Shown one piece after another: positions 35,132-35,448 of a DNA stretch of 64,000 nt. This DNA comes from Bacilli bacterium (lineage in GTDB: Bacteria > Bacillota_I > Bacilli_A > RF39 > UBA660), in contig JAFWMN010000008.1 of assembly GCA_017513865.1 (NCBI GenBank), positions 15,232 to 79,231 of the forward strand, in the 5' to 3' direction. Position numbers and translations under genes: made by a program. Position 1 is the stretch's first letter, and each line of letters opens with the position of its first letter. The notes beneath the pieces were generated by a model. The model was not told the origin of the DNA, searched no databases, and was given only the letters and a program-made list of their open reading frames with translations.

Positions 35132-35161
35132 TTGATATCATAAATGACGATATGTTATAAT
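35132..35161 (+). promoter_or_regulatory. sigmaA promoter for toxin-2 mRNA
   Basis: TTGATA-18-TATAAT with extended -10 TG. Confidence 0.65.
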
Positions 35162-35216
35162 TTGTGCAGGGAATATTTAACAGTTTGAGTGCTTACCTCC
35201 GAAAGGAGGTGGTGAT

Positions 35217-35291
35217 ATGTCTAAGAAAGATTTTTTAATCTTATCTTTAATCATTATCATCATTCTACTTATTATTCTATTATTAAAATGA
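35217..35291 (+). CDS. Candidate type I toxin peptide 2 (24 aa, not in ORF track)
   Basis: AAAGGAGGTG RBS held in ACCTCC-GAAA-GGAGGT hairpin; MSKKDFLILSLIIIIILLIILLLK. Confidence 0.75.
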   Translation: MSKKDFLILSLIIIIILLIILLLK

Positions 35292-35306
35292 TAATGAATT
35301 TTAAAA

Positions 35307-35413
35307 TGAAAAGCACTCAATCTAGACTAGATTAAGTGCACACCCATGAGGTGAGTACTCAACATTGTGGCGTTAAGTATTCCCTTTTTTATTATATGAG
35401 GTTTCCCTCATCT
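35307..35413 (-). ncRNA. Candidate antisense antitoxin RNA 2 (approximate ends)
   Basis: Minus-strand promoter at 35420..35448; hairpin GCACTCAATCTAG/CTAGATTAAGTGC (35313..35339) followed by T-run on minus strand. Confidence 0.55.
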
Positions 35414-35419
35414 ATATAC

Positions 35420-35448
35420 ATAATAACATAAAAAAGAGATTTTTTCAA
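35420..35448 (-). promoter_or_regulatory. Convergent sigmaA promoter (antisense RNA 2)
   Basis: TTGAAA-17-TATTAT with extended -10 TG on minus strand. Confidence 0.6.

Follow-up and report, generated by a model that had tools for sequence, protein, structure and literature searches.

The window, by which we mean the whole 64,000-nt stretch of DNA that was analysed, is AT-rich and belongs to a 1.31-Mb genome of 41 contigs with 28% G+C. Within it, a 442-nt gap separates a gene for an FtsX-like ABC permease (33188..35107) from murG (35541..36638), and this gap holds a compact cassette with two convergent predicted transcription units. The whole inserted cassette spans 35110..35470 on the plus strand (both ends are approximate), with the permease stop codon (35107) on one side and the terminator of the permease gene (35480..35500) on the other, so that transcription running on from the ABC operon would enter the predicted toxin mRNA. 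In relatives, the counterpart of this terminator stands directly 3′ of the FtsX-like permease gene. The only Rfam matches in the window at the gathering score are four tRNA genes and a ribosomal protein L21 leader (29595..30111 and 46865..46942). A second small ORF of the window, at 32341..32430, encodes 21 aa (MEYLIILVIVLVILKDTPLKK) with a hydrophobic run followed by a charged tail. It lies upstream of an ABC ATPase gene, has a convergent terminator-like hairpin beside it on the minus strand (32430..32410, just upstream of the same gene) and shows no sequence kinship to the cassette at 35110..35470.

The plus strand of the cassette begins with a promoter at 35132..35161 (−35 TTGATA, 18-nt spacer, TG-extended −10 TATAAT; 11 of 12 matches), whose predicted start is near A35168. 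Of the 15 promoter-like sites in 34500..36200, a number in itself not above the shuffled mean of 13.9, this one scores best. Taken from this promoter to a T-run (TTTTTT, 35385..35390), the predicted toxin mRNA would be ~223 nt long (35168..35390, plus strand). Folded as 35167..35392 (226 nt), it reaches −74.6 kcal/mol (z = −9.1), and none of 200 shuffles folds as well. Its ORF at 35217..35291 encodes a peptide of 24 aa, MSKKDFLILSLIIIIILLIILLLK, in which a charged N-terminus (MSKKD) precedes one transmembrane-length hydrophobic run; 18 hydrophobic residues follow MSKKDF without a break, and the length is that of a short hydrophobic membrane-spanning ORF (under about 60–70 aa). Upstream of the ORF, the Shine-Dalgarno sequence (SD, GGAGGT) forms one arm of a hairpin at 35195..35210, plus strand, across a GAAA loop from an anti-SD (35195..35199) that makes up the last bases of a longer 5′ element. 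The word that forms this hairpin occurs once in the window, where 0.01 matches are expected by chance.

On the minus strand, a convergent promoter at 35420..35448 (−35 TTGAAA, 17-nt spacer, TG-extended −10 TATTAT; 10 of 12 matches; predicted start near 35413) and a terminator hairpin at 35313..35339 (12 pairs, then a U-run, 35312..35303, TTTTCATTTT) set the ends of an antisense RNA of about 105–110 nt (35305..35413), the candidate antitoxin. Terminator-like sites number 2 in 34500..36200, against 0.3 expected. The predicted antisense RNA, taken as 35413..35303 (111 nt), folds into three hairpins at −37.8 kcal/mol (z = −5.9), again with none of 200 shuffles as good. These are a 5′ hairpin (35393..35414, minus strand) that is capped in most copies by a GAAA loop, falls outside the mRNA and is conserved better than any other part of the cassette, a second stem-loop (35353..35382, minus strand) and the terminator. 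From ~35413 to 35305 the RNA stays past the stop codon (35291), and its first ~23 nt lie beyond the mRNA end; it is complementary to the whole mRNA 3′ UTR (about 35305..35390, ~85 nt) and not to the ORF. Promoter, hairpins and terminator together thus point to an antisense gene whose product would be able to pair with the toxin mRNA.

Copies, peptide types and the insertion site

The host genome carries one paralogue, on another contig and with 72% identity, which encodes MSKKDFLVFSLILIILLLIALLFVMLK. Searches with blastn found matches in 32 of 36 other genomes of the genus, with up to 14 per genome among the matches listed; of 24 genomes from outside the family, only one had a match, a weak one. 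When 71 genus loci were searched by nhmmer with an HMM of the 3′ module, 99 hits were found, 93 of which cover the module; the other six were dropped as partial by a coverage filter. By peptide, these 93 copies divide into 57 of type A (M-x-KKDFLI..., the type of the window's cassette), 19 of type C (..TKREK.LYAIISLLF..), 2 of type B (MKTKTF...) and 15 that have no ORF or are cut by a contig end. Copies are often arranged in tandem, head to tail every ~345–357 nt, and different types can be mixed within one array. Several orphan copies (L014, L020, L026, L029 and the second copy in each of L007 and L008) retain the antisense module and the 3′ UTR, with the ORF or its 5′ end lost; in L029, the 5′ UTR and SD are kept and no peptide ORF follows.

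At a greater distance, a covariance model of the antisense module was run on one genome for each genus of the family, the host genome included. It matched 77 of these 151 genomes, with 1–14 matches per genome, and 62 of the 119 family genomes that are at least 90% complete and at most 5% contaminated. A class-wide draw gave matches in 4 of 13 other genomes of the family and in none of the 137 that represented 25 other families of the class. When the module was written as a degenerate pattern of 30 bases, at least 120 stretches of public genomes matched it; the matches listed come from gut MAGs of uncultured Bacilli, Tenericutes or Erysipelotrichaceae, and the carriers among them include Firmicutes bacterium CAG:822, Candidatus Coprosoma, Ca. 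Faecisoma, Ca. Ventrenecus, Ca. Onthousia, Mycoplasma sp. CAG:611 and Coprobacillus sp. CAG:605. The module was also seen on two contigs titled as Muribaculaceae MAGs (L119 and L140), one of which is 1.6 kb long with two tandem copies, which looks more like misbinning than like transfer to Bacteroidota. Viral contigs gave no match to the module pattern, and plasmid and phage collections gave no blastn match to the cassette. Judged by these searches, the cassette in the window is one copy of a previously undescribed, many-copy cassette family of ~350 bp in uncultured small-genome gut bacteria.

The site itself was compared across the genus with a 1.6-kb query spanning the insertion, which was matched in 60 of 61 genomes. 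In 20 of the genus genomes, the ftsX and murG flanks lie 13–123 nt apart with no cassette between them. An insert at the ftsX–murG junction was found only in the host genome and in its nearest relative, G004, which alone matched the query end to end (92% identity). At the other loci fetched, the cassette has neither murG nor ftsX as a neighbour. By this comparison, the cassette at the junction is an insertion. At the same site in G004 (L193, 2211..2447, minus strand), the sense promoter, the antisense 5′ hairpin and the antisense promoter are nearly identical to those of the window, and the whole stretch between the transcription start and the T-run is instead a type C body, whose ORF has a GTG start codon and whose peptide begins VTKREKSLFF.... 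This type C cassette folds into the same clamp design, described below, with a z-score of −9.6. Between the window and G004, the change of toxin body comes with a change of the antisense body, which is its exact complement.

Conservation of two opposed predicted transcripts

Conservation within the ORF follows the reading frame. Over codons 7–22 of 50 aligned type A copies, column identity is.72,.93 and.65 at codon positions 1, 2 and 3, and in almost every codon the second position is an invariant or nearly invariant T (NTN). On this pattern, the ORF is coding, with selection acting on hydrophobic residues and not on the nucleotide sequence. An alignment of 35 of the 48 distinct type A peptides, picked by eye, shows M1, K3, K4, D5, L7 and L18 to be invariant. 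Many type A peptides end in hydrophobic residues, without the polar or aromatic C-terminal tail that has been described for known type I toxins (PMC2887945).

Both promoters are conserved as well. Across 49 type A copies, at least 90% of rows retain the TTG of the sense −35 box and the core positions of the −10 box. The closing helix of the mRNA, clamp P1, starts ~7 nt past the −10 box, which is the predicted first base of the message; the T-run at the other end is kept in the alignment of 50 copies. The antisense module was aligned over 81 of 88 copies of all peptide types, the rows left out by eye being near-duplicates of kept rows or contig-end cuts. Its promoter keeps the −35 TTG in at least 90% of rows, together with the 17-nt spacer and the TG-extended −10 box, in which positions 1, 2, 5 and 6 are invariant and positions 3 and 4 variable. 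The antisense 5′ hairpin is 89.1% paired in these copies, its two loop-closing pairs switching between G-C and A-U in 26 and 29 rows, and by itself it gives matches of ~90% identity at many places in relatives. Stem-loop 2 is 89.3% paired, and 8 of its 11 pairs change on both sides. The initial annotation had proposed a sense promoter belonging to the locus, a 24-aa ORF, and a small RNA over the 3′ UTR defined by a convergent promoter and terminator; all of these elements are present at the positions that it gave, and their conservation across the family bears the proposal out.

For the mRNA, RNAalifold returned only the three most conserved short helices of the 50-copy alignment, and the long-range helices were therefore tested as named structures. 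The test used a MAFFT alignment of 50 of the 55 full-length type A references, and the rows left out by eye were near-duplicates or contig-end cuts. Clamp P1 (35169..35181 with 35372..35384, plus strand; 13 pairs, one of them G-U in the window) joins the 5′ and 3′ ends of the message; 94.9% of its cells are paired, and 10 of 13 pairs change on both sides. A second long-range helix, P2 (35185..35199 with 35348..35362, plus strand; 15 pairs, two of them G-U in the window), is 78.5% paired, with changes on both sides at 8 of 13 pairs. The 5′ element can alternatively pair with the first arm of the hairpin that follows the ORF (35185..35194 with 35311..35320, plus strand), as seen in the fold of a 3′-truncated RNA; here 93.4% of cells are paired, and both sides change at 6 of the 10 pairs. 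The post-ORF hairpin, which is the antisense terminator read on the other strand, is 91.2% paired over its outer 9 pairs, 6 of which change on both sides. The anti-SD with the SD (alignment columns 42–44 and 68–70) is likewise 91.2% paired, with one of three pairs changing on both sides, and the hairpin before the T-run, in the sense reading, is 72.8% paired, with 10 of 11. The helices are mutually dependent, the same segments serving in mutually exclusive pairings, and all of these figures measure consistency and not probability.

None of 500 shuffles reached the paired fraction or the covariation score, either in the two sense-strand helix runs or for the antisense helices of the 81 copies, although such controls overstate significance because the sequences are kin. 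When partners were slid by 1–3 columns, pairing on the sense strand fell to 26–48%, compared with 79–89% observed over the three runs; slid controls for the antisense helices gave 29–42%. These results agree with the pairings drawn in the initial annotation: a 5′ segment that meets a 3′ segment just ahead of the T-run, a neighbouring segment with two alternative partners, all of which covary, and an SD locked in ACCTCC-GAAA-GGAGGT, a hairpin that is present, well paired and recovered in folds.

Where one strand forms a G-U pair, the opposite strand has an A-C mismatch, and the two can be counted separately in each helix. In the sense reading, G-U outnumbers A-C in P1 (65 vs 15), in P2 (66 vs 19), in the pairing of the 5′ element with the post-ORF arm (43 vs 8) and in that of the anti-SD with the SD (21 vs 3). 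The balance is the opposite in the post-ORF hairpin, or antisense terminator (11 vs 30), and in the hairpin before the T-run (16 vs 92). Wobble thus falls on the sense strand in the helices that need the 5′ UTR and on the antisense strand in both hairpins inside the overlap. This strand specificity argues that both strands make structured RNA, and it is the strongest indication in this analysis that the minus strand does so. By the same counts, P1 is selected on the sense strand, because its G-U pairs far exceed its A-C mismatches, and the hairpin before the T-run is built for the antisense RNA, because on the sense strand the excess is reversed. The bases of antisense stem-loop 2 form only a weaker hairpin on the plus strand (35353..35363 with 35372..35382); this hairpin competes with the 5′–3′ clamp and, across the family, is better paired on the antisense strand. 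Since this local hairpin before the U-run is poorly suited to the mRNA, the long-range P1 may itself serve as the terminator stem of the message.

Proposed regulation and relation to known systems

Our results suggest a model in which the 24-aa peptide would insert into the membrane and harm the cell when made in quantity, and in which its synthesis would be held back at the SD. Both the nascent and the full-length mRNA would be translationally silent, with the anti-SD (35195..35199) occluding the SD. Computed folds are consistent with an occluded ribosome site, as the SD hairpin is present in the minimum free energy (MFE) structures of full-length and truncated RNAs and forms in RNAs cut at 35304 or 35345, which mimic the nascent and the antisense-bound message. 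In the antisense-bound mimic (cut at 35345), the 5′ element pairs with the post-ORF arm. In the full-length mRNA, the SD is closed in the MFE structure, whereas the centroid extends P2 through the anti-SD to GAGGT (35348..35352), which opens the SD. The anti-SD could accordingly exchange its partner for this GAGGT in the 3′ UTR and free the SD, so that the 3′ UTR would act as an anti-anti-SD. Where P2 would have to extend distally to open the SD, most copies are complementary in two registers, without covariation. In the thermodynamic model, there is no clear translatable state, the SD being closed in the full-length MFE structure too, and a translatable "on" state of the mRNA is a conjecture.

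By pairing with the 3′ UTR, the antisense RNA would remove the GAGGT competitor, and the SD would stay closed. The two RNAs would also form an ~85-bp duplex that a double-strand RNase could cut. Such a dual action, on SD closure and on decay, would be like that of SR4 on bsrG mRNA, for which binding of SR4 is described as lengthening the SD-sequestering helix from 4 to 8 bp and as driving decay (PMC3834814).

Database comparisons place neither product in a known family. None of 45 peptides (35 of type A, 2 of type B and 8 of type C) scored above the cut-off against Pfam-A, and the only hits at E ≤ 0.1, Phospholamban (0.031) and SMIM5_18_22 (0.051), were both below it; two peptides searched against NCBIfam gave nothing meaningful. 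Through Pfam, no similarity was found to the toxins of Fst/RNAII, TxpA/RatA, BsrE-G-H, YonT, SprA1 or SprG, some of which may lack a Pfam model. Rfam, searched on both strands of 34900..35700 at E ≤ 10, returned a single chance-level snoRNA hit (15 bits, compared with a gathering score of 50). We found no paper on type I systems in this lineage; the supplementary tables of Fozo et al. 2010 or of work on human-microbiome small proteins might list the peptides. The description of the family as unrecognised, given when the locus was first annotated, is upheld by these searches.

T1TAdb is described as holding 24 families (PMC8594479). According to the same account, Gram-positive type I families have the antisense RNA on the 3′ side, where it overlaps the ORF in all but Fst/RNAII and SprA1/SprA1as (PMC8594479). 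The bsrG/SR4 pair of Bacillus subtilis, in the BsrE-G-H group, resembles the cassette in its convergent genes and in an antisense RNA on the 3′ side of the toxin mRNA (as described in PMC8594479). It also has an SD that is reported to be partly sequestered and to be tightened by antitoxin binding far downstream (PMC3834814), a mechanism that we infer for the cassette too. In the BsrE-G-H group, however, the antisense RNA is described as overlapping the ORF as well (PMC8594479), whereas that of the cassette covers the 3′ UTR only. The two systems share no detectable peptide similarity (no Pfam hit) and belong to different host lineages. To our knowledge, a 5′–3′ closing helix like that of the cassette mRNA is not a described feature of bsrG.

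Fst/RNAII (par) and SprA1/SprA1as are, like the cassette, Gram-positive and convergent, with an antisense RNA clear of the ORF (as described in PMC8594479). In that account, the regulatory pairing of both systems takes place outside the overlap (PMC8594479), whereas the ~85-nt overlap is the only long complementarity seen in the cassette. Unlike in those two systems, the overlap itself thus appears, from its complementarity, to be the pairing region. The cassette likewise has no match to a Pfam toxin model or to an Rfam antitoxin that would link it to either.

Its mRNA recalls a different group. For AapA1/IsoA1 of Helicobacter pylori and for hok/Sok, the full-length mRNA is described as untranslatable by its fold, with successive alternative structures during synthesis, and loci of the AapA1/IsoA1 type as many-copy and chromosomal with peptides of about 30 aa (PMC5416894). 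The 5′–3′ clamp of the cassette and the alternative pairing of its 5′ element resemble this logic as described there (PMC5416894), and the long-distance 5′–3′ closure that characterizes Hok/Sok and AapA/IsoA is found in the cassette as P1. The antisense RNA is placed differently: it is described as lying inside the mRNA and overlapping the ORF in AapA/IsoA and as lying 5′ of the ORF in Hok/Sok (PMC8594479). An antisense RNA fully within the mRNA, at or 5′ of the ORF, is not what we see in the cassette, where it covers the 3′ UTR. The messages of AapA/IsoA and Hok/Sok are activated by 3′ processing, a step not known for the cassette, and their hosts are Proteobacteria and Campylobacterota.

The exchange between the window and G004 raises the possibility, which we put forward tentatively as a whole, that the family is a modular chassis in which the promoters and the GAAA-loop antitoxin hairpin stay constant and the body is swapped as a unit. 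This unit would comprise the 5′ UTR, ORF and 3′ UTR, and hence the specific part of the antitoxin, and its exchange would involve three or more peptide types that are unrelated to one another. The unchanging hairpin of the antitoxin would give all members a common handle, whether for a host factor or for the stability of the RNA, and the toxin mRNA would be terminated by its own 5′–3′ closing helix, with the local hairpin selected on the opposite strand. The body exchange was seen at one orthologous site in two close genomes.

A predicted toxin-antitoxin locus and its alternatives

We consider the cassette likely to be a chromosomal toxin-antitoxin system of type I that represents a new family, with the toxicity of the peptide and both transcripts predicted from sequence. 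The type I design put forward in the initial annotation gains support from comparison, as the layout is conserved across the family in its covariation, its coding periodicity and both of its promoters. With known type I families, the cassette shares multiple copies, tandem arrangement, presence/absence polymorphism and decayed copies, and tandem repetition is a described trait of type I loci (PMC2887945).

The peptide could instead be a harmless small membrane protein that, for example, modulates a membrane complex; the cis-antisense RNA would then set its level, and it would be neither a toxin nor part of an addiction module. The evidence for coding and for an antisense gene says nothing on toxicity, and the peptide is without the polar C-terminal tail of many known toxins. 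The position of the cassette beside an ABC transporter operon would also suit a membrane-protein partner, but this neighbourhood is not conserved, with neither murG nor ftsX at the other loci tested and an empty site in 20 relatives. Moreover, some genomes carry 14 or more copies, copies can stand in tandem or be decayed, and a single chassis bears three peptide types that are unrelated. This is how selfish or dispensable modules behave, and not a partner protein with a housekeeping role. We therefore regard a harmless protein as unlikely.

A type I cassette also accounts better for the two RNAs than does the idea that the antisense RNA is the functional product, one of a family of trans-acting small RNAs, with the peptide mRNA as a decoy or by-product. 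That idea draws on the antisense promoter and 5′ hairpin, which are the best-conserved parts and common to all peptide types, and on orphan copies that retain the antisense module without an ORF, in which the RNA might have a use of its own. However, only 15 of 93 copies are without an ORF, several of these being contig-end cuts, and the ORF is clearly selected at the amino-acid level. The body of the antisense RNA co-varies as a complement with the toxin body, which fits a cis partner better than a shared trans target, and a trans-acting role as the main function is quite improbable. Hardly credible is a miniature non-autonomous mobile repeat with the clamp as terminal inverted repeats and the ORF and promoters as incidental: the ~350-bp length, the high copy number, the presence or absence at a given site and the inverted ends of 13 nt would suit it, but conservation on either side reaches past the inverted repeats to the two promoters and the 5′ hairpin of the antisense RNA, viral contigs and phage and plasmid collections gave no matches, and we reject it on the bias of G-U over A-C in the clamp, unexpected for a repeat maintained at the DNA level, and on the codon periodicity of the ORF. 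Chance is rejected by the fold z-scores of −9.1 and −5.9 and by the recurrence of the design in 93 copies.

As a predicted toxin-antitoxin system, the cassette would add a type I family from a large lineage of uncultured gut Bacilli with genomes of about 1–1.5 Mb, a single one of which can carry ten or more copies. With so many natural variants, the covariation record is unusually rich for a toxin mRNA with its antitoxin. A 5′–3′ closed mRNA, as in the proteobacterial systems, occurs in this family together with the 3′-side antisense layout of the Gram-positive ones, and the swap of cassettes at one site is a natural test of antitoxin specificity.
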